Assembly (NCBI GenBank): GCA_001781625.1
Contig: MFLS01000002.1
Location: 19,957 to 66,039 of the forward strand
Source of the DNA: Candidatus Kaiserbacteria bacterium RIFCSPHIGHO2_12_FULL_56_13
GTDB taxonomy: Bacteria > Patescibacteriota > Minisyncoccia > Phycocordibacterales > Phycocordibacteraceae
DNA length: 46,083 bases
Reading direction: 5' to 3'
Below, in pieces: positions 4,203 through 39,055 of this stretch; the stretch's first letter is position 1, and each line of letters begins with the position of its first letter. The notes below the pieces were generated by a model. The model did no database searches, had not been told where the DNA came from, and saw nothing but the letters and a program-made list of their open reading frames with translations. The translations under genes were made by a program, and so were the position numbers.

Positions 4203-5315
4203 ATGCCGCTGTATTTGTGGGCGACAATAGTTTTCGCCATCGTCATCGCGCTTAGCGCAAGCGTGTATAACGCGCCGAGGGTGGCCACTGCCCCGCCTAC
4301 CCAAAACACGATTGAGACAGTAACGGATGAAGAAGTTGTTTGGGGTGACGTGCCGACAGCGAGCGAGCCAGTTGTCGAAGCATCGCCGTTTGTCGAGCCC
4401 GCACAACCTGCGGCTACGACCCCGATCTCTCAACCGCCTGCATCACAGCCGGTCGCGGTTGCCGTACAACCCACACAGAGCGAATTTGAAAGTGCGGCCG
4501 AAGCACTGCGCGCTGCCCTCGTCAACATATTTTGCATCTCCGGTCGTCGTGATATCATCTCGATCTCTGGCTCGGGCGTCATCGTTGATCCGCGCGGCAT
4601 CATCATCACGAATGCGCATATCGCACAATACTTTTTGCTCGCCGGCGATCCCGCGCTTGAGGTCTCGTGCATGATACGTGCCGGGAGCCCCGCAAAAGAT
4701 CTCTATCGCGGGAGCCTCATGTTCCTCCCGCCCTCGTGGGTCGCACAAAACGCCGACATTCTGACTAAAGACGACCCGACTGGGAATGGCGAATACGACT
4801 TCGCTTTTATCGCCATCACGGGGAGTGCAACCGCTTCATCCTTGCCGAGCATCTTCGCCCATGTGCCGCTTGGCGAGGGCGATGCCCACGCTCTCGAGCC
4901 CGTCATCATCGGCGCCTATGCGGCACAATTTCTTTCATCGAGCCAGTTGCAGTCGGCGCTCTTCCCCACCCTTGTGTATGGTTCGATAAAAGAGGTTTTT
5001 ACTTTTGTCGCGACGACGATCGATGTCATCACGCTTGGCGGCTCGGCGGCGGCACAAGAGGGCTCTTCAGGCGGCGGAGTGGCACGCACCGACGGCACCT
5101 TAGGCGGCCTTATCACCACCTCGACGATTGAGGGCGATACCTCTGCGCGCACCTTAGGCGGAATCACGGCGTTATACATTCGCCGCGCCTATGAAGCCGA
5201 GACCGGTACAACACTTACAACGCTCATGTCGAAGTCGCCAGTTGAAGCGGCTGCCAGCTTCGCGCCGCAGATACCCGCGCTCCGCGCGCTCCTCACTGCC
5301 GCTCTTTCGCAATAA
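4203..5315 (+). CDS. Membrane-anchored trypsin-like (S1 family) serine protease
   Basis: N-terminal TM segment is LYLWATIVFAIVIALSA. GSGVIVDPRGIIITNAHIAQY provides the catalytic His context, EYDFAFIAI the Asp, and EGSSGGGVA the Ser. Confidence 0.7.
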   Translation: MPLYLWATIVFAIVIALSASVYNAPRVATAPPTQNTIETVTDEEVVWGDVPTASEPVVEASPFVEPAQPAATTPISQPPASQPVAVAVQPTQSEFESAAEALRAALVNIFCISGRRDIISISGSGVIVDPRGIIITNAHIAQYFLLAGDPALEVSCMIRAGSPAKDLYRGSLMFLPPSWVAQNADILTKDDPTGNGEYDFAFIAITGSATASSLPSIFAHVPLGEGDAHALEPVIIGAYAAQFLSSSQLQSALFPTLVYGSIKEVFTFVATTIDVITLGGSAAAQEGSSGGGVARTDGTLGGLITTSTIEGDTSARTLGGITALYIRRAYEAETGTTLTTLMSKSPVEAAASFAPQIPALRALLTAALSQ

Positions 5316-5318
5316 CGT

Positions 5319-5389
5319 TCGGGCCGCCGAGAGTCGAACTCGGTCTACCTGCTCCCAAAGCAGGCGTACTACCATCATACGCCGGCCCG
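5319..5389 (-). tRNA. tRNA-Pro (UGG)
   Basis: Acceptor is CGGGCCG/CGGCCCG. Anticodon stem is CCUGC/GCAGG with loop UUUGGGA. T arm is CCGAG-UUCGACU-CUCGG. Confidence 0.8.
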
Positions 5390-5399
5390 CTTTTGCATC

Positions 5400-5792
5400 C
5401 TACACGATTTGCGGCAAGTAGCGGACACGAGCGCGACCGTCGTGAGCTCGAAGCCACACCAGCGCTCCGTCGACCTGCCACTCTCCCTCCCAGTTCTTTT
5501 GCATGACATACCACTCCCCCGTTCGTGCAACCTTGCGCACTTTCGCTTCGTGGAGATTTAAAGAAGGATCATATTCGTCTGTCGGTTCTGCCGTTGGGAA
5601 TTCGCGACAGACAACCGTCTTAACCTCGACAAAGTGAAGAGTGTTACCCTCGTGGGCCACAAGGTCGATCTCTCCTGTTTTGCGGGTGACATTGCGGTCG
5701 ATAATCTTTATGCCGTGTCGGCGAAGGTATTCGGCCGCCACCCGCTCTCCCAGAGTCCCAATCTCCCTCCTACTCTTACCAAAGAGGTTCAT
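5400..5792 (-). CDS. YraN family (UPF0102) endonuclease-like protein
   Basis: GERVAAEYLRRHGIKIIDRN...GEIDLVAHEGNTLHFVEVKT is the typical YraN signature. Confidence 0.85.
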   Translation of the reverse strand: MNLFGKSRREIGTLGERVAAEYLRRHGIKIIDRNVTRKTGEIDLVAHEGNTLHFVEVKTVVCREFPTAEPTDEYDPSLNLHEAKVRKVARTGEWYVMQKNWEGEWQVDGALVWLRAHDGRARVRYLPQIV

Positions 5793-5920
5793 GTCCTTTA
5801 ATTATAGCCCTTATTTGCTTGTTTTTCTTTAAAGTCAAGATATTTGGGGGTATGTCCTTTATCCCCATGTCCCCAACTTTATCCCCTACTTCGCTCAAGC
5901 TACGTAAGGTAAGCACTTTG

Positions 5921-5991
5921 TGCGGATAGCGAGAATCGAACTCGCGTCTCGTCCTTGGCAAGGACGCATTCTACCACTAAACCATATCCGC
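5921..5991 (-). tRNA. tRNA-Gly (GCC)
   Basis: Acceptor is GCGGAUA/UAUCCGC. Anticodon stem is CGUCC/GGACG with loop UUGCCAA. T arm is GCGAG-UUCGAUU-CUCGC. Confidence 0.85.
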
Positions 5992-6019
5992 TTTTCGCGA
6001 GGCACTATACCATATCTTG

Positions 6020-6091
6020 CGCCTCGGCCAGGACTCGAACCCAGAATTCGACGTCCGAAGCGTCGCGTGATATCCATTTCACCACCGAGGC
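6020..6091 (-). tRNA. tRNA-Arg (UCG)
   Basis: Acceptor is GCCUCGG/CCGAGGC. Anticodon stem is CGACG/CGUCG with loop CUUCGGA. The T loop is UUCGAGU and the T stem has two G-U pairs. Confidence 0.75.
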
Positions 6092-6131
6092 ATTACGCCG
6101 TAAAGCGTAACAAACATGCTACCATCACGCC

Positions 6132-7595
6132 ATGAGCCATGCTGTGCCAAAAGAGGTTGCGGGCGTCTCCTCTGCCCTTCGCAACGCTGGTTTTGAGGCC
6201 TATTTGGTTGGTGGATGCGTCCGCGATCTCCTCCTTAGCAGAACGCCGAAGGACTGGGATATCACCACGAATGCCTCCCCGGAGCAAATCCAGGTCGTGT
6301 TTCCTGACTCTTTTTACGAAAATGAATATGGCACCGTGGGTGTAAAAACTGGCGCCCTCGATCCGGCTCTCGCCATTGTTGAAGTAACTCCCTATCGTAA
6401 AGAGTCGGGCTACTCTGACAAGCGCCGGCCTGACTCGGTTGAGTTTGGCGCCTCGCTCGAAGAGGATCTTGCAAGACGCGACTTCACCGTGAACGCCATC
6501 GCCCTCGGTGGCTCTCAAGGACAACCTGTTGACCCGTATAAAGGACAAAAGGACATAAAGGACAAAGTCATACGTGCCGTAGGCAAGCCAGAAGAGCGCT
6601 TTAACGAAGACGCACTCCGTATTATGCGGGCCGTGCGGCTTGTCGCCGAGCTTGATTTTGCCCTCGACACAGACACGGCCGCGGCAATGAAGTTACACGC
6701 GAAACATCTAGGAGCTATTTCACGTGAAAGAGTCAGGGACGAGCTTGTCAGGATCCTCAATTCAGATTCCCCCATGACAGCCCTAACTCTTGCACAGCAG
6801 CTTGGGCTTTTGGAGTTTATCGCCAAGGATCTCTGCCGGGGTATAGGCGTGGAGCAAAATCAGGCTCATAAATACGATGTTTTTGAACACTTGATGCGTA
6901 CCATGCAGCACGCTGCAGACAAGAGTTACAACTTCGAGACCCGCCTTGCTGGGCTCTTTCATGATGTCTCGAAGCCAGAGACGCGGCGTTGGTCTGACGA
7001 AAAGAATGATTGGACCTTTCATGGCCATGATGTTGTTGGTTCACGTGTAACAAAAAAGGCTCTAGAAGATTTGAAGTTTTCACGGAATACCATAGATAAA
7101 GTCGTGAAACTTGTGAGATGGCACATGTTCTTCTCTGACCCTGAAATAGTGACCACTTCAGCTGTGCGGAGGGTCATTACTAATGTCGGACAAGAGAACA
7201 TTGAGGATTTGCTGAACTTGCGGATTTGTGACCGCATTGGCACTGGGCGGCCAAAGGAGCAACCCTTTCGCTTTCGTAAATACAAGGCCATGGTAGAGCA
7301 GGCCCTGCGAGACCCCGTTTCAGTTGGGATGCTTAAGACTGACGGCAACCGGCTCATGGAGAAGTTTCGCGTGGAACCTGGGCCAAAGATAGGATGGGTT
7401 TTACATGCTCTTCTTGAAGAGGTGCTTGATAACCCAAACCTTAATACTGAGGAGTATATGGATAAAAGAGCGGCTGAAATGCTCGCCATGAAGGAGACAG
7501 AACTTAAGAAGCTGGGCCAATCGGGCAAAGAAAAGCGTGAAAAGAGGGAAGAGGAGGAGCTGAAAAAGATAATGGAGAAGCACCACGTTTGCTAG
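6132..7595 (+). CDS. cca: CCA-adding tRNA nucleotidyltransferase with HD domain
   Basis: Polymerase-beta motif is AYLVGGCVRDLLL...DWDI, followed by RDFTVNA. The HD domain includes LFHDVSKP. Confidence 0.85.
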   Translation: MSHAVPKEVAGVSSALRNAGFEAYLVGGCVRDLLLSRTPKDWDITTNASPEQIQVVFPDSFYENEYGTVGVKTGALDPALAIVEVTPYRKESGYSDKRRPDSVEFGASLEEDLARRDFTVNAIALGGSQGQPVDPYKGQKDIKDKVIRAVGKPEERFNEDALRIMRAVRLVAELDFALDTDTAAAMKLHAKHLGAISRERVRDELVRILNSDSPMTALTLAQQLGLLEFIAKDLCRGIGVEQNQAHKYDVFEHLMRTMQHAADKSYNFETRLAGLFHDVSKPETRRWSDEKNDWTFHGHDVVGSRVTKKALEDLKFSRNTIDKVVKLVRWHMFFSDPEIVTTSAVRRVITNVGQENIEDLLNLRICDRIGTGRPKEQPFRFRKYKAMVEQALRDPVSVGMLKTDGNRLMEKFRVEPGPKIGWVLHALLEEVLDNPNLNTEEYMDKRAAEMLAMKETELKKLGQSGKEKREKREEEELKKIMEKHHVC

Positions 7596-27578: not shown

Positions 27579-29075
27579 ATGGCGGCGTTGATCGCGGTAA
27601 CGGCGGGCTTTGCGAGCGGAGTGTTACTCCGCTCGCTTTTTGTTTTTGGGTGGCCCATTATTCTTTTTATCGCGCTTGTCGGCTTAATGCTGTTTGCCGC
27701 GCGGCTCGTGGCGAGCCGCGCGGCCTACCTTTTGTGTGCGCTCTTTGTAATCGCGGCCGCGCTTGGCGCGGCGCGATTCCACATGGCTGACGCGCCATTA
27801 CCCGCGCCCCTTCTCGCCGACCTCGATACCCGTGTGGTTTATGAAGGCGAAGTGGTTGTCGAACCTGATGTGCGCGATTCGCACCAGCGCATTACGGTAG
27901 AGGTTCGCGAGGGAGAGGAGGAGGCGCGTGTTTTTATTGTTGCCGACCGTTACCCTGCCGTTTCGTACGGCGACCACGTAGTGGCAAGGGGCGTGCTTGC
28001 CTTACCCGAGCCTTTTGCGACCGATGCGGGCCTGCTCGGCCAGGGCCGCGTCTTCAGGTACGACCACTACCTGAAGAAAGACGGTGTCGAGTTCATCATC
28101 GAGTTTGGCGAGCTCGACATCATTGCAAAGCACGAAGGATTTTCTCTCTATGGCGCGCTCTACGACTTGAAGCATGCATTTAACGCCGCGCTCTCGCGCG
28201 CCTTGCCTGAGCCCGAGGCCTCGCTTGCAAGCGGCTTGATCTTGGGAGGGAAGCAGGGACTTGGAGAAGATTTGAAAGAAGCGTTCACGATTGCCGGGCT
28301 CATACATATCGTCGTCTTGTCTGGCTACAATGTGATGATCGTTGCGATTGCGATGATGCGGTTCTTTGTATTTTTGCCGCGCCGCGCTGCCGCCACGCTT
28401 GCGGGCATAACCATCGGGCTCTTTGTCCTCATGGCAGGAGCAGGTGCCGCAAGCATGCGCGCCGGCCTCATGGCGGGCCTCGGCCTCTTTGCGCGCGCCT
28501 CGGCGCGCACCTTCGATGCGCTGCGCGCCTTGCTTGTCGTTGGTGTTGCGATGGTGGCGTGGAATCCGTTCACGCCTGTCTTTGATCCCGGATTCCAACT
28601 TTCATTTGTCGCGACCGCAGGTCTTATTCTCGGCGCACCCTTGGTGGCGGCGCGCTTCGCATTCATACGAAACGAGTTTTTTAAAGAAATCGCGGCGTCT
28701 ACTATCGCCGCGCAAATTGCTGTCTTGCCGCTCCTTTTGTATCAAACCGGTCTCTTTTCTTTAGTCGCGCTTCCTGCGAACTTACTTGTTTTGCCGGCAA
28801 TCCCTCTTGCAATGGGACTTTCGTTTTTTGCGGGCACAATTTCGCTCGTATTCCCGTCGCTCGCGCTCGTTGCGGGCCTCCCCGCCCATGCGGTGCTCTC
28901 ATATATCATCGCGGTGGCCGAAAGCGCCGCCGCACTCCCGCTTTCGTCGCTTTCGATCCCCGCCTTCCCCTTCATCTTTGTACTCATTGCGTACGCAACC
29001 CTTGGCTACACCGCTTTCGTAAAACGCTCTTCAATGACGCTCCAGTTGATGTTCTCGAAAAAAACATCCACGTAA
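27579..29075 (+). CDS. comEC: ComEC/Rec2 DNA-uptake channel protein (DUF4131 + competence domain only)
   Basis: Polytopic membrane protein with an OB-like region (VVYEGEVVVEPDVRDSHQRITV). Competence-domain motifs include LILGGKQGL and GLIHIVVLSGYNV. It lacks the C-terminal metallo-beta-lactamase domain. Confidence 0.8.
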   Translation: MAALIAVTAGFASGVLLRSLFVFGWPIILFIALVGLMLFAARLVASRAAYLLCALFVIAAALGAARFHMADAPLPAPLLADLDTRVVYEGEVVVEPDVRDSHQRITVEVREGEEEARVFIVADRYPAVSYGDHVVARGVLALPEPFATDAGLLGQGRVFRYDHYLKKDGVEFIIEFGELDIIAKHEGFSLYGALYDLKHAFNAALSRALPEPEASLASGLILGGKQGLGEDLKEAFTIAGLIHIVVLSGYNVMIVAIAMMRFFVFLPRRAAATLAGITIGLFVLMAGAGAASMRAGLMAGLGLFARASARTFDALRALLVVGVAMVAWNPFTPVFDPGFQLSFVATAGLILGAPLVAARFAFIRNEFFKEIAASTIAAQIAVLPLLLYQTGLFSLVALPANLLVLPAIPLAMGLSFFAGTISLVFPSLALVAGLPAHAVLSYIIAVAESAAALPLSSLSIPAFPFIFVLIAYATLGYTAFVKRSSMTLQLMFSKKTST

Positions 29076-29599
29076 TTCTTTTTTTCGGCAGGGAGGTAAT
29101 CCACCATGTAGGCATGCTCCCAAAGGTCGAGGGCGAGAATCACGGGGAGGCTGGCAAGCTGTCCGATTTCGTGGTCAGTAACGAAAACGGTGTGAAGCAC
29201 GCTCTCGACAGAATCGAAGTATACGACGACCCAGCCCACGCCTCGCGTGCCCGCAACTTCTTTTATGTGTGCAATAAATTTTTCTTTGCTCCCGTATTTT
29301 TCGCGCGCAGCGCGCGCAAGCGCCGAGTCTTCGCTCGGCGCTTTAGTCCCATTTTCAAACTGTTCGAAATAATATTCATGCATGCGCATGCCGTCGAACT
29401 CGAAGGCGAAGCGACGGCGAAGCTCTGCGGCGATGTAGGGATCAAGCTCGAGCGCGCCCTCGCGCGCTACTTTAAATTTATCCGCGATCAAGTTCACGTG
29501 CTTCACGTATCCCTCGTAAAGCCCGAGATGCACTTTTACTTGCTTCTCCGAGAGCCCCTTGAGAGCGGGAAGGTTGAACTGTCGAACTGCATATGCCAT
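29006..29599 (-). CDS. Fe/Mn superoxide dismutase
   Basis: LPALKGL...H, FNGGGH-equivalent region, and C-terminal DLWEHAYMVDY metal-ligand motif. Confidence 0.85.
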   Translation of the reverse strand: MAYAVRQFNLPALKGLSEKQVKVHLGLYEGYVKHVNLIADKFKVAREGALELDPYIAAELRRRFAFEFDGMRMHEYYFEQFENGTKAPSEDSALARAAREKYGSKEKFIAHIKEVAGTRGVGWVVVYFDSVESVLHTVFVTDHEIGQLASLPVILALDLWEHAYMVDYLPAEKKNYVDVFFENINWSVIEERFTKAV

Positions 29600-31932: not shown

Positions 31933-31961
31933 TTGCAATAGTGCCTTTATTCATTTATAGT
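31933..31961 (+). promoter_or_regulatory. Candidate promoter for rpsL-rpsG
   Basis: TTGCAA (31933-31938), 17 nt spacer, TATAGT (31956-31961). Confidence 0.45.
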
Positions 31962-31966
31962 GCTCG

Positions 31967-32009
31967 GTGACCCCTGCCTGCCGGCAGGCGCACACGGGGT
32001 CATTTTTTT
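31967..32009 (+). terminator. Terminator-like hairpin plus U7, ending 2 nt before the rpsL ATG
   Basis: The outer stem is GUGACCCC pairing with GGGGUCAU. The inner hairpin is GCCUG-CCGG-CAGGC. UUUUUUU (32003-32009) follows. Confidence 0.55.
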
Positions 32010-32010
32010 A

Positions 32011-32418
32011 ATGTCCACTATCAATCAGCTCGCGAAGAGGCATCGCAAAGATAAACCTCGTAAAACGAAGGTCCTCGCCCTTGGGCGCGGCTTTAATGTA
32101 CTCAAAAATCGCCCGGCATTCTATTCGGCGCCCTTTAAGCGCGGCGTCTGCATCAAGGTCACCACGAAGACGCCGCGCAAACCGAACTCCGCGATCCGCA
32201 AGATCGCTCGTGTCCGGCTCACGAACGGCATGGAGGTCACCGCCTATATCCCGGGCGAGGGGCACAATTTGCAAGAGCACTCGGTCGTGATGCTCCGCGG
32301 CGGGCGCGTGAAGGACATCGGCGTGCAGTACACGGTCGTGCGCGGCAAACTCGATACGGCCGGTATCGAGAAGCGTCGCCGTGGCCGCTCGCTCTACGGC
32401 GCGAAGCGCCCGAAATAA
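32011..32418 (+). CDS. rpsL: 30S ribosomal protein S12
   Basis: MSTINQL...[18 protein letters not shown]...[12 protein letters not shown]. Confidence 0.95.
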
Positions 32419-32421
32419 GCT

Positions 32422-32886
32422 ATGCGTCGCCCAATTAGAAAGCCGCGCACATGGAAGCCCGATTTAGAGTACAAGTCAGAGGGTGTCGCGCGTTTTATCA
32501 ACGCCGTGATGTGGGATGGGAAAAAAGACACGGCGCGGCGCGTCGTTTACGATGCTTTTTCAAAAATAAAAGAGGGTGGGGCAAACCCGCTTGAGACCTT
32601 TGAGGCGGCGATTCGCAATGCCTCGCCTTTGATGGAGGTACGCTCGCGTCGCGTCGGGGGCGCGAACTACCAAGTGCCGCGCGAAGTGCCGCAAAATCGT
32701 CGCCTCGCGCTCGCATACCGTTGGCTTATTGGCTCGGCTCGCTCGAAGAAAGGCCGCCCGATGGCCGATAAACTTGCTGAAGAGCTCTCGCTTGCCGCGA
32801 AGAACGAGGGTGAAGCGATCAAGAAGAAGGACGAGATGCACCGCATGGCTGAAGCGAACAAAGCCTTCGCCCACTTTGCCTGGTAA
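32422..32886 (+). CDS. rpsG: 30S ribosomal protein S7
   Basis: FINAVMWDGKK...VRSRRVGGANYQVP...EANKAFAHF. Confidence 0.95.
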   Translation: MRRPIRKPRTWKPDLEYKSEGVARFINAVMWDGKKDTARRVVYDAFSKIKEGGANPLETFEAAIRNASPLMEVRSRRVGGANYQVPREVPQNRRLALAYRWLIGSARSKKGRPMADKLAEELSLAAKNEGEAIKKKDEMHRMAEANKAFAHFAW

Positions 32887-32888
32887 AG

Positions 32889-32918
32889 AAAAACGGCGCC
32901 CGAGGGGCGCCGTTTTTT
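32889..32918. terminator. Bidirectional intrinsic terminator (rpsG / orphan A)
   Basis: ACGGCGCCC (32893-32901) pairs with GGGCGCCGU (32905-32913). Flanked by AAAAA and UUUUUU. Confidence 0.75.
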
Positions 32919-32928
32919 AGAGTTCACT

Positions 32929-33306
32929 TCAGTCCGTGTCTTTTTCTTTCGTCCGTCGACAATGCCGGGGGTTGAAGTAGATGATTGAGCCCGGATGTTT
33001 CATCACCTGTTCTGCCGTCTCGGGGTCGAGGGGGACCCCTTTGGGAATTGTTTGCACGAAACCGTCTTTGTGCAGGTAGATCCTTTTTGGAGCGAACCAA
33101 TCTCTCCCTCGCGCGTCTCTCGCGAAGGTCATGTAAACGGCGCCCTGTCGCGTCTCGGCAAGACGGCTCACCTTAAAACAGGGCAGGGGAGCCGAGGTTT
33201 TGATGTGTTCTCCGCGAGGGGCTCGCGTGAACCCGAGCGCGAGCATTTTACGTGCGATTTCGTCGGGGGGCGGCTCCGTACGGCTTCGCCGTCGTAAAAC
33301 AGCCAT
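32929..33306 (-). CDS. Orphan A: hypothetical 125-aa basic protein, antisense to the str operon
   Basis: GGAGG lies 6 nt before the ATG. A candidate promoter is TTGCAA-16-TATAAC on the minus strand (33364-33337). It ends at the shared terminator. No recognisable family. Confidence 0.5.
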   Translation of the reverse strand: MAVLRRRSRTEPPPDEIARKMLALGFTRAPRGEHIKTSAPLPCFKVSRLAETRQGAVYMTFARDARGRDWFAPKRIYLHKDGFVQTIPKGVPLDPETAEQVMKHPGSIIYFNPRHCRRTKEKDTD

Positions 33307-33371
33307 TGGTTTCCTCCGCGTATGTTCCTAGTTGCCGTTATACCACAATGCAATGCTTTTGCAAATGCCCG

Positions 33372-33399
33372 TTGCTTTTTATACAAAGTTCGTTATTGT
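33372..33399 (+). promoter_or_regulatory. Candidate fusA promoter
   Basis: TTGCUU (33372-33377), 16 nt spacer, TATTGT (33394-33399). The alternative is TTGCAA (33359-33364), 17 nt, TACAAA. Confidence 0.3.
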
Positions 33400-33405
33400 A
33401 CGCAT

Positions 33406-33428
33406 AACGCCTCGGCGTTTTTATTTTT
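33406..33428 (+). promoter_or_regulatory. Small CUCG-loop hairpin plus U-tract in the fusA leader
   Basis: AACGC-CUCG-GCGUU is followed by UUUAUUUUU, 6 nt before the ATG. Confidence 0.4.
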
Positions 33429-33434
33429 GTAGAC

Positions 33435-35582
33435 ATGAATCGGGATTACCCACTAGAGAAAGTCCGTAACTTCGGGATTATCGCGCATATTGATGCGGGT
33501 AAGACGACTACGTCTGAACGCGTCCTTTTCTATACCGGTTCCCAGCACAAGATAGGCGAGGTGCACGAGGGCGATACCACGACCGACTGGATGGAGCAGG
33601 AGCGGGAGCGTGGTATCACGATCACCGCAGCCGCCATTACCTGCTTTTGGGTACCGACACGCGAAAAGGACAAAGCCGACATTACAAAAAAGTTTCGTTT
33701 CAATATCATCGACACGCCGGGCCACATCGACTTCACCGCTGAAGTGAAGCGAAGCATGCGCGTGCTTGACGGCGCCGTCGTCGTTTTTGACGGTGTCGCG
33801 GGCGTCGAGCCGCAGAGCGAGACGAACTGGCGCTACGCCGACGAGGCGAATGTCCCGCGCCTCTGCTTTATTAACAAGCTCGACCGTACGGGCGCCTCGT
33901 TCGAGCGCTCGTACGCCTCGATCCTCGATCGCCTCTCGAAAAAGGCCGTCAGGATGCAAATACCCATAGGAGAGGAGGGTAATCACGAGGGAGTGATCGA
34001 CCTCCTCGCCATGAAGGCGTATCGATTTGAAGGCGACATGGGCAAAACGGTAGTTGAGGGCGAAATTCCCGAGGACCTCCTCGAAGAGGCAAAAAAGTAT
34101 CGCCACGAACTCATTGAGCGCATCGTCGAGCACGATGACGCGGCGATGCATGCGTATCTTGAGGGAAAGGAGCCCGCACTCGATGAACTGAAGAATATTT
34201 TGCGTAAGGCAGTCATCAATAACGCCGTTTTCCCGGTCTTCACCGGTTCGGCGCTCAAAAATAAAGGGGTGCAACTCGTCCTCGATGCGGTCGTTGATTA
34301 CCTCCCCTCTCCTTTGGACCTCCCGCCGGTCAAGGGCATTAATCCGAAAACCGGCGAAGAGCTCGTGCGCTACGCCTCTGACGATGAGCCCTTCACCGCG
34401 CTCGCCTTCAAGCTCCAGGCCGATCCCTTTGTCGGCCAGCTCACCTTCTTCAGGGTCTATGCGGGTACCGTTGAGGCGGGCTCTTACATTTACAACGCGA
34501 CCACCGGCACCAAGGAGCGGCTCGGCCGCATCGTGCGGCTCCAAGCCGACAAGCGCGAGGAGGTAAAGAAGGTCTTCTCGGGCGAAATCGCCGCCGCGGT
34601 TGGCCTCAAAGACACGAAAACCTCGCACACCTTGTGCGTTGAAGACGCACCCATTATCCTTGAATCCATCAAGTTCCCCGAGCCCGTGGTCTCACTTCGC
34701 ATTGAGCCAAAAACTAAGGCCGATCAGGAGAAGATGGGCATGGCCCTCAAAAAACTTTCAGATGAAGACCCGACCTTTCGCGTCTCGACCGATGACGAGA
34801 CGCTTGAAACGATTATTTCAGGCATGGGCGAGCTTCACCTCGAGATACTTGTTGACCGTATGAAGCGCGAATTCAGTGTCGAGGCCAATGTGGGGAAGCC
34901 GCAGGTGGCGTATCGCGAGACGATCCTCGGTACTTCGGAGGCCGAAGGCAAGTACATCAAGCAGACGGGTGGTCGCGGGCAATACGGCCATGTCCGCATC
35001 AGGATGAAAAAAATGGAGCCGCTCGAGGAGGGCAAGAAAATCGCGAAGAACACGACACGTGAAGATCACTTTGAATTCGTGAACTCCATCAAGGGCGGCG
35101 TTGTCCCGCAAGAGTACATCCCGGCGGTTGAAAAGGGTGTGCGGGAGGCGATGGGGCGCGGCATTTTGGCCGGCTTTCCTGTCGTGGATGTCTCCGTCGA
35201 TCTCTACGACGGCTCGTACCACGATGTTGACTCGTCAGAGATCGCCTTTAAGATTGCGGCCTCGATGGCTTTTCAGGACGCAGCGAACCGCGCGAAACCG
35301 GTCCTCCTTGAACCGATCATGAAGATAGAGGTAGTGGTGCCTGAGCAATTCATGGGTGACATTACGGGCTCTCTCTCCGGTAAACGCGGCGCTATCGAGA
35401 GCATGGAGGATCGCGGGCAAAACAAAGCGATCAGCGCCAAAGTCCCACTTTCAGAGATGTTCGGTTACACGACCCAGCTCCGTTCGATGACCGAAGGCCG
35501 CGGCTCGATGACGATGGAGTTCGATCACTACGATGTCGTCCCGCAAAACGTCGCGGCCGACATCATCGCGAGCCGGAAGTAA
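33435..35582 (+). CDS. fusA: Elongation factor G
   Basis: [28 protein letters not shown] and the full five-domain length. Confidence 0.97.
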
Positions 35583-35660
35583 CGCATCCACGAACACTAT
35601 CCCCAGGGGCTCTTGACCGGTGGGGTATCATTAAAGGTGGAGATAACCAAGGAGAGTGCG

Positions 35661-36110
35661 ATGCCGAAATCGACAGAGGACTGCGTTCGCGAGTACATCG
35701 AAGCTCAAGCAGGACGAGTTCTTACCAACCTGGCAGAACCCACGCTCCAAGCAGAACTTCTTGTTGCGGGCAAGATGCGGATATGCACCTTCTCGTGCAG
35801 GAAGAACCCGCTTAAAATAGCGGTTATCGTTGGTCGGGCCCAAGCCGATGTGGAGGTGTTTCTTGATGAACTTATACGCATCGATCCGCAGGGCGACTTT
35901 TCGTATCGCGTGGGGAACGATAGCGAATACATCTACTGGGTGTTCGATCTCCTTGTGCCAGACGGCTCGCTCACCAAGCTCCTCGGCCTTTGGCACTCAC
36001 TTGCCGAAATCGAGGTGGCAAAGCTCGACAGTATCTCTTTGCTCGATGATCAAGAGGGGTCACGTATATCGGGGTACGAATTTCCTGTCGTGAGCACGCT
36101 TCGGCACTGA
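35661..36110 (+). CDS. Orphan B: hypothetical 149-aa protein inserted between fusA and tuf
   Basis: AAGGAGAG lies 4 nt before ATG 35661. Followed by its own terminator. No recognisable family. Confidence 0.5.
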   Translation: MPKSTEDCVREYIEAQAGRVLTNLAEPTLQAELLVAGKMRICTFSCRKNPLKIAVIVGRAQADVEVFLDELIRIDPQGDFSYRVGNDSEYIYWVFDLLVPDGSLTKLLGLWHSLAEIEVAKLDSISLLDDQEGSRISGYEFPVVSTLRH

Positions 36111-36125
36111 CTTGTGTACAGAACG

Positions 36126-36165
36126 CGGCCGCTATCGAGAGCGATAGCGGCCGTCTTGCATTTTT
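36126..36165 (+). terminator. Intrinsic terminator after orphan B
   Basis: CGGCCGCUAUCG (36126-36137), AGAG loop, CGAUAGCGGCCG (36142-36153), then UCUUGCAUUUUU. Confidence 0.6.
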
Positions 36166-36184
36166 GGGCGCCCTCCGGTACATT
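36156..36184 (+). promoter_or_regulatory. Candidate tuf promoter
   Basis: TTGCAT (36156-36161), 17 nt spacer, TACATT (36179-36184). Confidence 0.4.
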
Positions 36185-36282
36185 CTCCTATAACGCAGTA
36201 CCGCATGTACTTTGTCGTGTGTGCGGTTGGCGCGTATTACCAGACCTCCCCCGCGAGGGGGAACTATTTACCAATCGCTATC

Positions 36283-37482
36283 ATGGCAGAATTTAATCGG
36301 GCAAAGCCGCACATGAATGTGGGCACCATCGGCCACGTCGACCACGGCAAGACGACCCTGACTGCTGGTATCTTGCATGTCCTCGACCTGCTCAAAGACA
36401 AGGGTTACAGCGCCCGCGTCGAGGCCGTCGATAAGATCGACAGCGCTCCTGAAGAGAAAGCGCGCGGTATTACTATCGCGCTCCACCACTCGGAGTACGA
36501 GACCCCGAACCGTCACTACGCGCACATCGATGCGCCGGGGCACGCTGACTATATTAAGAACATGATTACGGGTGCCGCCCAGATGGACGGCGCTGTCCTC
36601 GTCGTCGCCGCGACTGACGGCGTGATGCCCCAGACTCGCGAACACATCTTGCTTGCCAAGCAGGTGGGCCTCAAAAAGCTCATTGTCTTCCTTAACAAGG
36701 TAGACATGGTCGCCGAGAAAGATCTCATCGACCTCGTCGAAGAGGAGGTGCGCGAACTCCTCGCGAAGCAGGGCTACGACGGCAAAGGTACGCCGATTAT
36801 CCGCGGCTCGGGCTTGAAAGCCCTTGAGGCGAAAAGTGTTGATGATGAGTATGCAGCGAAGGCAAAAGAGCTCGTCGACACGATGGACACCTACTTTGAG
36901 GTGCCGGTTCGCGAGACAGACAAGCCGTTCTTGATGCCGATCGAAGACATCTTCTCGATCGAAGGCCGTGGCACCGTCGTGACTGGCCGCATCGAGCGCG
37001 GCGTCGTGAAGGTTGGCGAAGAGGTTGAGATCGTCGGTATCAAACCGACGGCAAAAACGACCGTCACGGGTATCGAGATGTTCAACAAGCAGCTCCAAGA
37101 GGGCATGGCAGGCGACAATGCCGGCGTCCTCCTTCGCGGTACGAAGAAAGAAGATGTGCATCGCGGGCAGGTTATCGCGAAGTCGGGCTCGGTGACTCCC
37201 CACACCGACTTTGAGTCCGAGGTCTACGTGCTCGGCAAGGATGAAGGCGGGCGACACACCCCTTTCTTCTCCGGCTATAAGCCGCAGTTCTATATCCGCA
37301 CGACTGATGTGACGGGCGAGGTCACCTTGCCTGAAGGAAAAGAGATGGTGATGCCGGGTGACACGATCACCTTCAAGGTAAAGCTCGTGGCGCCGGTCGC
37401 GCTTGAAGAGAAGCAGCGCTTCGCGATTCGCGAAGGCGGCAAGACGGTCGGCGCAGGCGTCGTGACGAAGATCACGGCATAA
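36283..37482 (+). CDS. tuf: Elongation factor Tu
   Basis: [34 protein letters not shown] and NKVD. ATG 36283 fits the family N-terminus. Confidence 0.97.
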
Positions 37483-37488
37483 CTCTCA

Positions 37489-37929
37489 ATGGCGACAGCA
37501 GCGGCACCCTCCTCCGCTAAAGCTACGAAGGGCAAGAAACCTCGCGTAGCAAAAGCTAAAGCTGTTCCTAAGGCAAAGCCCAGGGCGTCTGTCGCTGTGC
37601 CAAAAGCCGCAGTTCCTGCAGTTGAGCACAAGCTTCGCATCAGGGTTCGCGCCTATGAGCACAAGATCCTCGATGTGTCAGTCAAGCAGATCATGGACAC
37701 GGCTGCGCGCTTTGACGCGAAGGTCGTGGGTCCGATCCCTTTGCCGACCGAGATCAAGCGCTGGACAGTGAACCGCTCGACCTTCGTGCATAAAGACGCG
37801 CGCGAGCAGTTCGAGATGCGGATCCACAAGCGCCTTATTGACATCCTGAACCCCTCTCCAAAGGTCGTCGAAGCCCTCACGAATTTGAATCTCCCATCCG
37901 GTGTCACGATCGACGTGAAGATGGTGTAG
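37489..37929 (+). CDS. rpsJ: 30S ribosomal protein S10 with a ~44-aa Ala/Lys/Pro-rich N-terminal extension
   Basis: The core is KLRIRVRAYEHKILD...GPIPLPTEIKRWTVNRSTFVHKDAREQFEMRIHKRLIDI. Confidence 0.9.
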   Translation: MATAAAPSSAKATKGKKPRVAKAKAVPKAKPRASVAVPKAAVPAVEHKLRIRVRAYEHKILDVSVKQIMDTAARFDAKVVGPIPLPTEIKRWTVNRSTFVHKDAREQFEMRIHKRLIDILNPSPKVVEALTNLNLPSGVTIDVKMV

Positions 37930-37951
37930 ATTTTTCTCAAAATGTTTTCGC

Positions 37952-37975
37952 AAAATCGGCCGTGCGGCCGGTTTT
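37952..37975 (+). terminator. Intrinsic terminator after rpsJ
   Basis: AAAAUCGGCC-GUGC-GGCCGGUUUU. Confidence 0.7.
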
Positions 37976-37981
37976 GCTTTG

Positions 37982-38296
37982 ATGTGGTATGCTCGCACGC
38001 GGCTTGAAACAGGGGAGACATATGTGACAGTACGACTTCGAACGAGCACAGTCCAGAAAGTGCTTGCCGATATGTACGGACTTGACTTCTCAGATCGTAG
38101 CGAGGCATTCGCGCGATTCGAGGCAATTTTCGTCAAAACGCATACAGATTTGAAGCAGATTGCTCGGATAGATATCAATACTAGCCGCAATCACTGGCTT
38201 CTCGAGTTCTGGTCGTTTAACGAGTCGAAGGGGTTTAAGAAGCTTATATCTTTTTCGGCGGCACTTGATTTCGGCAAGCCTCTTTCGTGGGAATAA
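37982..38296 (+). CDS. Orphan C: hypothetical ~100-aa protein inserted between rpsJ and rplC
   Basis: The ORF opens at ATG 37982, directly after the terminator. In-frame GTG 38024 has GGGGAG 6 nt upstream and may be the real start. It has its own terminator. No recognisable family. Confidence 0.45.
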   Translation: MWYARTRLETGETYVTVRLRTSTVQKVLADMYGLDFSDRSEAFARFEAIFVKTHTDLKQIARIDINTSRNHWLLEFWSFNESKGFKKLISFSAALDFGKPLSWE

Positions 38297-38323
38297 AACC
38301 GCTCATCGTCGCGATGAGCGGTT
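38295..38323 (+). terminator. Intrinsic terminator after orphan C
   Basis: AAACCGCUCAUCG-UCG-CGAUGAGCGGUUU, then CGCUUUA. Confidence 0.7.
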
Positions 38324-38330
38324 TCGCTTT

Positions 38331-38359
38331 ATTGCATCTTTATGGAGGGTGAGGTAGAG
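38331..38359 (+). promoter_or_regulatory. Candidate promoter for rplC and downstream genes
   Basis: TTGCAT (38331-38336), 17 nt spacer, TAGAGT (38354-38359). Confidence 0.45.
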
Positions 38360-38440
38360 TGCCTCGACGCTACGAACGGCCCCGCGGCCGGTCCTATGGC
38401 AAAGGGTTTCGCCCTGCGCCGTCGAGGCGCATTTATTTTT
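38360..38440 (+). promoter_or_regulatory. Structured ~80-nt leader before rplC
   Basis: GCCUCGACG (38360-38368) pairs with CGUCGAGGC (38420-38428), closing a GC-rich domain. GCAUUUAUUUUU then runs directly into the ATG. Confidence 0.4.
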
Positions 38441-39055
38441 ATGAAATTTATTCTCGCTAAGAAAGAAGGCATGACGCGCGTCTTCTCTGAAGACGGGCGT
38501 TCTGTTGCCGCAACCGTGCTCAAAACGGAGCCCATCGTCGTGACGCAGGTCAAGACCACTGATGGTAAGGACAAGTACTCGGCAATCCAAGTCGGATATG
38601 GCGCGCGCAGGGCGAAAACCGTTTCAAAGGCAGTACTCGGGCACGGCAAAGGTAAGGCCTATAAGGTACTTCGCGAGTTCCGGACAGACGAAGTGGGCAG
38701 TACCGCAGTGGGCAATGAAATTCAAAACACCTTTGCGGTTGGCGACACGGTCAAGATTTCTGGAGTGTCAAAGGGCAAGGGTTTTGCAGGCGTGGTGAAG
38801 CGCTACGGTTTCAAAGGCGGGAGACGCACGCACGGCCAAAAACACAGTGAGCGCGAGGCGGGTTCGATCGGCGGCGGCGGCCGCGCGGGCGGTCGCGTCG
38901 CGAAAGGTATGCGCATGGCGGGACGCCTCGGCGGCGAGCGCGTGACGGTAAAAAATCTAAAAGTGCTCGCCGTCGACCCCTCGGCGGGCGAACTTGTTGT
39001 CTCGGGTGCCGTGCCCGGGGTGCGCGGCGCCGTGCTCGAAGTCATTTCTGAATAA
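38441..39055 (+). CDS. rplC: 50S ribosomal protein L3
   Basis: MKFILAKKEGMTRVF...GKGFAGVVKRYGFKGG..THGQ. Confidence 0.95.
   Translation: MKFILAKKEGMTRVFSEDGRSVAATVLKTEPIVVTQVKTTDGKDKYSAIQVGYGARRAKTVSKAVLGHGKGKAYKVLREFRTDEVGSTAVGNEIQNTFAVGDTVKISGVSKGKGFAGVVKRYGFKGGRRTHGQKHSEREAGSIGGGGRAGGRVAKGMRMAGRLGGERVTVKNLKVLAVDPSAGELVVSGAVPGVRGAVLEVISE

Follow-up and report, generated by a model that had tools for sequence, protein, structure and literature searches.

In Escherichia coli K-12, the str and S10 genes are interrupted only between tufA and rpsJ, where 17 genes lie, and rpsG-fusA, fusA-tufA and rpsJ-rplC are 27-70 bp apart; in str-type clusters of archaea and cyanobacteria, the gene for S10 comes after that for EF-Tu or EF-1alpha and stands apart from the L3 gene. 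Genomic hot spots that lack mobile elements diversify by recombination at the core genes that flank them, notably in transformable bacteria (Oliveira et al., 2017, Nat Commun 8:841, PMC5635113), and loss of the anti-Shine-Dalgarno (anti-SD) sequence has been published for a subgroup of the Parcubacteria (Tsurumaki et al., 2022, RNA 28:1041, PMC9297842). Here, we analyzed 46,083 nt of Candidatus Kaiserbacteria bacterium RIFCSPHIGHO2_12_FULL_56_13 (contig MFLS01000002.1, positions 19,957 to 66,039; hereafter the window), in which the string of translation genes rpsL-rpsG-fusA-tuf-rpsJ-rplC carries one small open reading frame (ORF) at each of three junctions: orf1 at rpsG|fusA, orf2 at fusA|tuf and orf3 at rpsJ|rplC. 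An initial annotation of this DNA had described these ORFs as orphans that, together with terminators, broke a universally conserved string into four units. The genes, ORFs and strongly folding hairpins were found where it had placed them; calling the string universally conserved overstates the case, given the 17 genes that part tufA from rpsJ in E. coli.

The host is a tiny groundwater bacterium whose genome is represented by a 512-kb bin (89% complete), and its closest public relatives are Candidatus Kaiserbacteria, within the Parcubacteria/Patescibacteria. Since the same arrangement recurs, at ≥99.2% DNA identity, in at least six independent public metagenome assemblies, it is not an assembly artefact. 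Among these same-species copies, single-nucleotide polymorphisms were too few for an estimate of nonsynonymous over synonymous change (dN/dS).

Segmentation of the str-S10 string and gene turnover at its junctions

We think it fairly probable that this string consists of four ancestral units and three slots in which cargo genes turn over, the slots being fed by recombination at the end of the upstream gene. The units (rpsL-rpsG, fusA, tuf-rpsJ, and rplC onwards) would be autonomous, each with its own conserved sigma-70-like promoter and a leader that lacks a Shine-Dalgarno (SD) motif and holds a 5′ hairpin and a U-rich tract. The three spacers between them would tolerate insertions of species-specific, fast-evolving and mostly unannotatable genes, and in this genome each slot would hold one gene for a small soluble protein, insulated by terminators (Table 1). 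The units and the turnover slots emerge from comparison with related genomes.

The promoter-like TTGCAW-17-TAnnnT elements of the initial annotation were recovered before rpsL (31933), tuf (36156) and rplC (38332), but not before fusA, where the proposed TTGCAA-17-TACAAA misfits TAnnnT and the element conserved in the genus is a different one. Because the pattern is not enriched genome-wide (16 matches to TTGCAW-N16-18-TAnnnT vs. 12.4 expected), our promoter calls rest on conservation across species. In the genus, rpsL, fusA, tuf and rplC share an upstream architecture made of a TTGCNT −35 element, a 16-17-nt spacer and a −10 element of the form TAGAGT, TATAGT or TATNNT, followed by leaders that start with approximately (T)AACGC, form a 5′ hairpin and continue as a U-rich tract to the AUG with no SD motif; upstream of fusA, the recurring pattern is TTGCNT-16/17-TATNNT-N5-TAACGCC. 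In the window, the leaders of rpsL (31962-32010), fusA (33405-33434) and tuf (36185-36282) open, directly downstream of the −10 element, with (T)AACGC or a 5′ hairpin; these hairpins look like 5′ stabilizers and not like terminators. The structured leader of rplC contains covarying base pairs across 15 genus sequences (one pair, for example, occurs as CG in six, GC in five, AU in two and GU in one), and an Rfam scan of the region, this leader included, returned no match. We also observed that leader positions 38401-38419 are complementary, at 17 of 19 positions, to rplC codons at 38605-38623 (p ~0.007).

Four hairpins, each followed by a U-tract, were predicted to fold with −20 to −26 kcal/mol (z −3.6 to −6.7). 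The last of these (T4) overlaps the stop codon of orf3 and ends 7 nt upstream of the rplC −35 element, and relatives with an empty gap likewise carry a terminator directly before the rplC TTGCAT. Relatives with a gap of ~150-220 bp, in which no ORF of ≥45 amino acids was called, still have the conserved promoters and leaders before fusA, tuf and rplC, and between rpsJ and rplC the architecture is retained in gaps of 154-219 bp that consist of only terminator, promoter and leader. Because promoters and leaders are conserved even at near-empty gaps, the four-unit segmentation appears to be ancestral to the genus, and the string, with its four strong predicted terminators and conserved internal promoters, does not look like a single co-transcribed str-S10 operon.

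This conservation also bears on the view, taken in the initial annotation, that the orphans had themselves broken one operon into four. In its fuller form, three recent insertions of foreign, SD-using genes would have cut an ancestral single operon, the promoters having arisen later and the SD motifs being leftovers of the donor. Such a history would explain why the ORFs are absent from almost all relatives, yet it is contradicted by the genus-wide presence of the promoters and leaders at near-empty gaps, and, with the composition, descent and SD data given below, we judge it improbable.

For the comparison of junctions, we took the tuf region from 20 genomes of the same genus and 16 of the same order and located the six genes by tblastn. 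Across these 36 relatives, gap lengths ranged from 8 to 1687 bp at rpsG-fusA, from 226 to 3249 bp at fusA-tuf and from 10 to 1836 bp at rpsJ-rplC. The junctions rpsL-rpsG, tuf-rpsJ and rplC-rplD were tight in nearly all of the loci having both genes, the exceptions being a tuf-rpsJ distance of 464 bp in L015 and an rpsL-rpsG distance of 101 bp in L033; seven loci had no fusA within ~4.4 kb upstream of tuf. Among 60 further Kaiserbacteria/Paceibacteria loci, the rpsJ-rplC gap exceeded 250 bp in 34 and was ≤60 bp in only 12. The gap ORFs of relatives were nearly all singletons, mutually unrelated and in many cases without a family, and the larger ones carried Pfam domains as diverse as RDD, MOSC, DKNYY, peptidoglycan-binding/PKD, amidase, GGDEF, acyltransferase, prephenate-dehydrogenase and IS200 transposase, the IS200-like gene lying in a gap of one relative (L026). 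Even G550, the nearest sampled relative by fusA, rpsG and rpsL, shares a homolog of orf1 only: its other two slots hold different content, with a fusA-tuf gap of 830 bp and an rpsJ-rplC gap of 960 bp that contains a 229-amino-acid ORF, sugar-transferase-like by eye.

Different accessory genes are found in the same core-flanked intervals across genomes, and turnover is concentrated in a few intervals, beside neighbors that stay tight in nearly all loci, within this gene cluster, which is the extent of the comparison. As judged from these gene layouts, the three junctions appear to be hot spots of gene turnover and not the sites of three private insertions. The ribosomal-protein block is the standard syntenic marker for placing and binning genomes of the candidate phyla radiation (CPR), and recurrent cargo slots at its internal junctions, with an S10 gene detached from that of L3, bear on marker-based binning, on operon models and on gene gain in half-megabase genomes.

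Two side observations concern the core genes. In G003, a genome of the same genus, tuf (C1:209911-211103, locus L039) matches in three pieces in different frames, which reflect either frameshifts or sequencing errors. Protein S10 of the window has an N-terminal extension of ~45 amino acids rich in Lys, Ala and Pro (37489-37620), the sequence and length of which differ among relatives (tblastn coverage begins anywhere from residue 3 to 49).

Table 1. Predicted features of the str-S10 region and comEC, in window coordinates.
Feature	Position	Strand	Details
comEC	27579-29075		ComEC-like translation
rpsL promoter	31933..31961	+	TTGCAA-17-TATAGT; promoter scan; equivalent element kept in genus relatives
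Unit 1 (rpsL + rpsG)	32011..32886	+	3 nt apart; junction tight in relatives
rpsL	32011-32418	+	Pfam S12 match
rpsG	32422-32886	+	Pfam S7 match
Bidirectional terminator shared by rpsG and orf1	32889-32917	both	-23.7 / -22.1 kcal/mol, z -5.7 / -6.7
orf1	32929-33306	-	125 amino acids, basic (isoelectric point, pI, 10.3), antisense to ribosomal genes
orf1 SD	33313-33317	-	CCTCC on + strand (GGAGG-6-ATG)
orf1 own putative promoter	33337-33364	-	TTGCAA-16-TGgTATAAC; read from sequence
fusA promoter	33372-33399	+	TTGCTT-16-TATTGT; genus-conserved element
fusA leader	to 33434	+	short; TAACGCC 5′ hairpin 33406-33419, U-rich tract, no SD
fusA (EF-G)	33435-35582	+	full-length homology to relatives' EF-G
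orf2 SD	35649-35654	+	AAGGAG-6-ATG
orf2	35661-36110	+	149 amino acids, acidic (pI 4.7); best codon score in own frame
Terminator T2, after orf2	36125-36154	+	-25.8 kcal/mol
tuf promoter and leader	36156..36282	+	TTGCAT-17-TACATT; ~95-nt leader starts ATAACGCA; kept in genus
Unit 3 (tuf + rpsJ)	36283..37929	+	6 nt apart
tuf	36283-37482	+	identified by homology
rpsJ	37489-37929	+	Pfam S10 match
Terminator T3, after rpsJ	37950-37977	+	-20.8 kcal/mol, z -3.6
Possible extended -10 at orf3	37985-37993	+	TGgTATGCT; sequence
orf3 SD	38012-38017	+	GGGGAG-6-GTG
orf3	38024 (GTG) or 37979 (TTG) to 38296	+	90 or 105 amino acids; pI 9.1
Terminator T4, after orf3	38296-38324	+	-20.4 kcal/mol, z -5.5
rplC promoter	38332-38360	+	TTGCAT-17-TAGAGT; conserved in genus
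rplC leader	38361-38440	+	structured, ~80 nt; ends in terminator-like hairpin + U-tract; -37.2 kcal/mol
rplC	38441-39055	+	Pfam L3 match; first gene of unit 4 (rplC-rplD-rplW-rplB...)

Displaced gene ends and the proposed route of insertion

Traces of how cargo may enter the slots were found in relatives. In three of the same genus (L012, L017, L006), a displaced 3′ fragment of fusA lies inside the fusA-tuf gap. The 1-kb DKNYY-domain gene of L012 (~5053-6331, minus strand of the locus) has 102 nt of fusA sequence behind it. Of these, the initial 75 nt match the resident fusA exactly, and the gene lies between perfect 75-nt direct repeats; since the remaining 27 nt diverge from the resident copy chiefly at third-codon positions, they appear to come from another allele. 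The fragment in L017 spans 118 nt, stop codon included, and is 84% identical, with differences mainly at third-codon positions, and that in L006 spans 87 nt at 92% identity. A second 3′ fragment of rpsJ occurs in the rpsJ-rplC gap of L061 and L113. A possible recombination signal in the flanking core genes would consist of the allelic, mostly third-position differences in the fragments of these five loci, whereas the window holds a 21-nt repeat only.

These fragments point to recombination in the conserved upstream gene. Cargo would enter by recombination anchored in the conserved 3′ end of fusA or rpsJ and would leave a displaced 3′ fragment of the upstream gene downstream of the cargo, as is expected from a single crossover, or from 3′-end-targeted integration, with DNA that carries the gene end together with the cargo. 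The likely source would be DNA of related species, taken up by the competence machinery, of which the window encodes a ComEC-like protein. We have moderate confidence in this mechanism, which we infer from the footprints and which offers a concrete, testable route: recombination anchored in ultra-conserved gene ends.

The repeat in the window, AACGCGG(C)CGCTATCGAGAGC, also counts as a footprint. It occurs in the 3′ part of fusA (35383-35402) and at 36122-36142, the second copy lying 12 nt after the orf2 stop codon and forming the left arm of T2; its local alignment score of 35 exceeds the maximum of 30 in 300 shuffles. The fusA identity profile between the window and G550 is flat, with no breakpoint at the repeat. 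Several observations weigh against the proposed route. The footprint in the window is short and contains one indel, and none was found for orf1 or orf3. At ~79% fusA DNA identity between the nearest species, homologous recombination would be limited to the most conserved stretches. The retention of SD motifs in homologs of orf1 and orf2 that are only 33-42% identical fits neutral cargo poorly; it is also unlike the decaying relics that donor leftovers should have become. Finally, a site-specific recombinase acting in trans may insert the cargo instead. Family-library scans found no recombinase gene in the three window gaps, and no repeats bounding an insert were found for orf1 or orf3.

The three small genes and their Shine-Dalgarno motifs

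The predicted proteins of orf1, orf2 and orf3 are soluble and contain no membrane segment. Pfam, NCBIfam, PHROGs and PADLOC gave no match for any of the three, a word-indexed search across 5.8 billion proteins returned same-species copies only, and a PDB sequence search gave nothing significant. Tested against shuffled spacers, the ORF lengths were at most weakly significant on their own (p = 0.085 for orf1, 0.01 for orf2 and 0.10 for orf3). The origin in a different genetic background that the initial annotation had suggested was not borne out by GC content (0.577, 0.536 and 0.469 for orf1 to orf3 vs. 0.559 for the genome) or by codon-score percentiles (18, 49 and 21), and the composition and codon use of the orphans are overall host-like. 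This argues against three foreign insertions, as does the lack of any match in phage records, viral contigs or defence-system collections, although orf3 is more A+T-rich than the genome.

A six-frame search of 258 other genomes of the family recovered a single homolog of orf1 (E = 1.5e-22), in G550, which aligned over the full length at 41% identity. It lies between rpsG and fusA in antisense orientation and is followed by a bidirectional terminator, as is orf1. The flanking proteins of the two genomes are far more alike (EF-G 88%, S7 88% and S12 90% identity; EF-Tu, at 93%, is on par with G008). Because this homolog is full-length and sits at the same place, with 41% identity vs. 88-90% for its flanks, orf1 appears to be a real gene that was present in the common ancestor with G550 and evolves several times faster than its neighbors. 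Place, orientation and terminator shared with G550 look like vertical inheritance from that ancestor, which again speaks against a foreign insertion. Later insertion, as the initial annotation had put it, thus fits the recombination footprints of relatives but not orf1. A candidate assignment of orf1 to the HicA toxins (PF07927) was rejected: the full-length protein had no match, removal of residues 35-73 gave E = 0.0085 at 16.6 bits, under the 27-bit cut-off, a match to 1WHZ (E = 0.35) was lost with a two-sequence profile, the G550 homolog has Cys in place of the catalytic His, and conservation is highest in the very part taken to be an insert. AlphaFold2, run on single sequences for orf1 and orf2, gave a very poor model of orf1 (predicted local distance difference test, pLDDT, 40).

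No homolog of orf2 was found, even by profile, in the 258 other family genomes or in 400 genomes of the class, and when 1.8 billion cluster representatives were searched exhaustively with HMMER, eight full-length relatives of 148-158 amino acids and 28-39% identity were recovered, each known from only one or two contigs. The DNA of one of them (P0006, on L132) was fetched, and its start lies 87 nt after the stop codon of an EF-G C-terminus. Because the L132 member follows the end of EF-G, this rare family of ~150 amino acids appears to recur directly downstream of fusA, in the window and on L132, and orf2 likewise appears to be a real, fast-evolving gene. The statement that the orphans belong to no recognizable family accordingly holds for curated libraries and fails for orf1 and orf2, both of which have homologs. 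They are nonetheless far from being the conserved core genes of the lineage that the initial annotation had named as the contrary outcome, with orf1 in 1 of 258 genomes, orf2 in none of 258 and none of 400, and orf3 in none. The AlphaFold2 model of orf2 (pLDDT 48) has the order alpha-beta3-alpha-beta2-alpha; in Foldseek, it reached a template modelling (TM) score of ~0.3 to kinase N-lobes only, with ExsC at rank 27 (TM 0.35), and one of the nine family members matched PF22551 (TY-Chap1) weakly, at E = 0.079. These three concordant hints, none of them significant, weakly suggest a fold like that of YbjN or type III secretion chaperones.

Nothing terminator-like lies between fusA and orf2 (fold z +0.19), and orf2 is for this reason probably co-transcribed with fusA. 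Together with the absence of a promoter of its own, the second occurrence after fusA on L132, the chaperone-like hints and the constant position and antisense orientation of orf1 in G550, this gives some substance to the idea that the small genes serve the neighboring translation genes as accessory factors, restricted to the lineage and quick to evolve (for instance as a partner or a regulator for EF-G, EF-Tu or the ribosome), and are kept in place by the benefit of co-expression. We nevertheless find this quite unlikely: over 220 genus genomes with the same EF-G, EF-Tu and S10 yielded none of these genes, the slots of relatives hold unrelated enzymes and surface proteins, and no structural or family match was significant. 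Slot turnover, which we prefer as an explanation, assigns no function to the predicted proteins of orf1, orf2 and orf3.

For orf3, no homolog was found in relatives or in protein, phage/viral or PDB searches. In public gene calls, its start is GTG 38024 (90 amino acids) or ATG 37982 (104 amino acids), and its codon score is barely above that of the antisense frame. We regard it as a putative protein gene whose coding status is unproven, and it may be very young or non-coding. Another possibility is that certain ORFs, and orf3 in particular, encode no protein and are chance ORFs, decayed remnants of cargo or very young de novo ORFs in spacers beside strongly transcribed genes; this would agree with these features, with the ORF length of orf3 and its GC content, and with the poor model of orf1. 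Against this stand the full-length homologs of orf1 and orf2 with their conserved residues, the correctly spaced SD motif and terminator of all three ORFs, and the location of orf3 between two strong terminators, like a discrete cassette, and we give such an origin little credence. A 16-nt direct repeat, CGGCC(G/C)(T/C)GCGGCCGGT (14 of 16 positions identical), flanks orf3 at 37957-37972 and 38377-38392; one copy makes up the core of the terminator after rpsJ and the other the initial hairpin of the rplC leader, and the repeat may be due to chance or be a trace of insertion.

The three orphans carry the SD motifs GGAGG, AAGGAG and GGGGAG (orf1 to orf3), each 6 nt before the start, and none of the ~30 other starts in the window has one, in agreement with the contrast described in the initial annotation. 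From background rates, three SD motifs in three orphans would occur by chance with a probability of roughly 0.001-0.01. Genome-wide, SD 5-mers preceded 4 of 99 unambiguous starts, compared with 3.2% of internal in-frame start codons. In relatives, they preceded 2 of 106 true core-gene starts, and the junction ORFs showed a modest excess (6.7% vs. 3.2% per candidate start, p = 0.011), which is a point in favor of foreign insertions, as is the mere presence of SD motifs in a host whose 16S rRNA lacks their partner. The homologs keep the motif as well, as AAGGAG-6-ATG for orf1 in G550 and as AAAGGAG-7-ATG for orf2 on L132.

Comparison of 16S 3′ ends (L047, L048, L049 and L140-L144) showed the tail GGAACAUAUCC(A/G)A in 8/8 genus genomes, this one included, with no CCUCC; E. 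coli has GGAUCACCUCCUUA at the same place. The genus tail, ...AUAUCC..., leaves GGA:UCC pairing only, and the SD-poor gene starts of the genus can be put down to the missing CCUCC. SD-led initiation requires both a motif 5-10 nt ahead of the start codon and a complementary CCUCC, and here the motif is present and the 16S partner absent. Two other ideas were dropped: CsrA, which could have read the GGA motifs, has no gene that we could find in the genome, and an alternative SD matching the real 16S tail (GGAUAU) is not enriched at starts. Genome-wide, TATAC/ATACT are enriched above all other k-mers upstream of starts, which suggests many leaderless mRNAs. Boxes of the form TATACT/TATATT were seen 4-9 nt before an ATG at window positions 29599 (minus strand), 30165 (plus strand) and 23593 (plus strand), as leaderless mRNAs would have them, at genes that include those for superoxide dismutase and a metallo-beta-lactamase-fold protein.

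The SD contrast is real and stands as the most interesting unexplained residue of this analysis. The orphans may be under a different mode of translational control, which the initial annotation had raised, the motif being kept though the 16S rRNA has no anti-SD. A stronger version, that in this anti-SD-less lineage fast-evolving accessory genes between translation operons keep a canonical SD motif under selection, strikes us as doubtful. If it were true, it would imply that SD motifs are read by a route not involving the 16S tail, or that newly acquired genes are deliberately given a channel of low or conditional translation, and the spacers of ribosomal genes would be a nursery for SD-bearing accessory genes. 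In any case, a host that lacks the anti-SD and yet has SD motifs is a clean natural case for the role of the motif without its partner.

Two further observations were made outside the window in the same bin (G000). At 0.521, the GC content of contig C32 (21.3 kb) is the lowest in the bin, and the contig has 10 SD-led ORFs, or 4.7 per 10 kb vs. ~1 elsewhere; before the start of one of them stands the CAAGGAGAGTGCG string that also precedes orf2. This contig is either a foreign island or mis-binned. The 16S rRNA gene (C9:1266-3505, locus L049) is interrupted, immediately upstream of helix 45, by ~730 nt inserted between AAGTCGTA and ACAAGG. This insertion is absent from the relatives G024 and G003, and the 3′ exon of the gene is identical to the tail of the relatives.

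Comparison with described systems

Relative to the str and S10 operons of E. coli, the window has the same genes in the same order, with rpsL-rpsG and rplC-rplD tightly linked, and the breaks are reversed: tuf and rpsJ, the site of the only interruption in E. coli, are 6 nt apart here, and terminators, promoters and cargo occupy the other three junctions. Breaks at rpsG|fusA, fusA|tuf and rpsJ|rplC are unusual. The joining of rpsJ to tuf and its separation from rplC recall the archaeal and cyanobacterial clusters, from which the window differs in that rplC has its own conserved, structured leader; those clusters are not known as variable cargo slots.

With the Parcubacteria subgroup of Tsurumaki et al. 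(2022), this genome shares a 16S tail without CCUCC and gene starts at which SD motifs are not enriched. It differs in that a minority of accessory genes keeps a canonical SD motif, of which the searched passages of PMC9297842 make no mention.

The closest likeness is to the hot spots of Oliveira et al. (2017): the same core-flanked interval holds different accessory genes in each genome, turnover is rapid, integrases and transposases are usually absent, possible signs of recombination lie in the flanking core gene, and the organism has genes for DNA uptake. The differences lie in the setting, which here is among translation genes, within the gene string that bacteria conserve most, in a CPR genome of ~0.5 Mb; in the cargo, which consists mostly of single small orphans; and in the footprint, which is a displaced 3′ fragment of the upstream gene and not a clean double-crossover replacement. 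Core-flanked hot spots as such are known, and what is new is their location inside the translation-gene string, with the SD anomaly attached to it.

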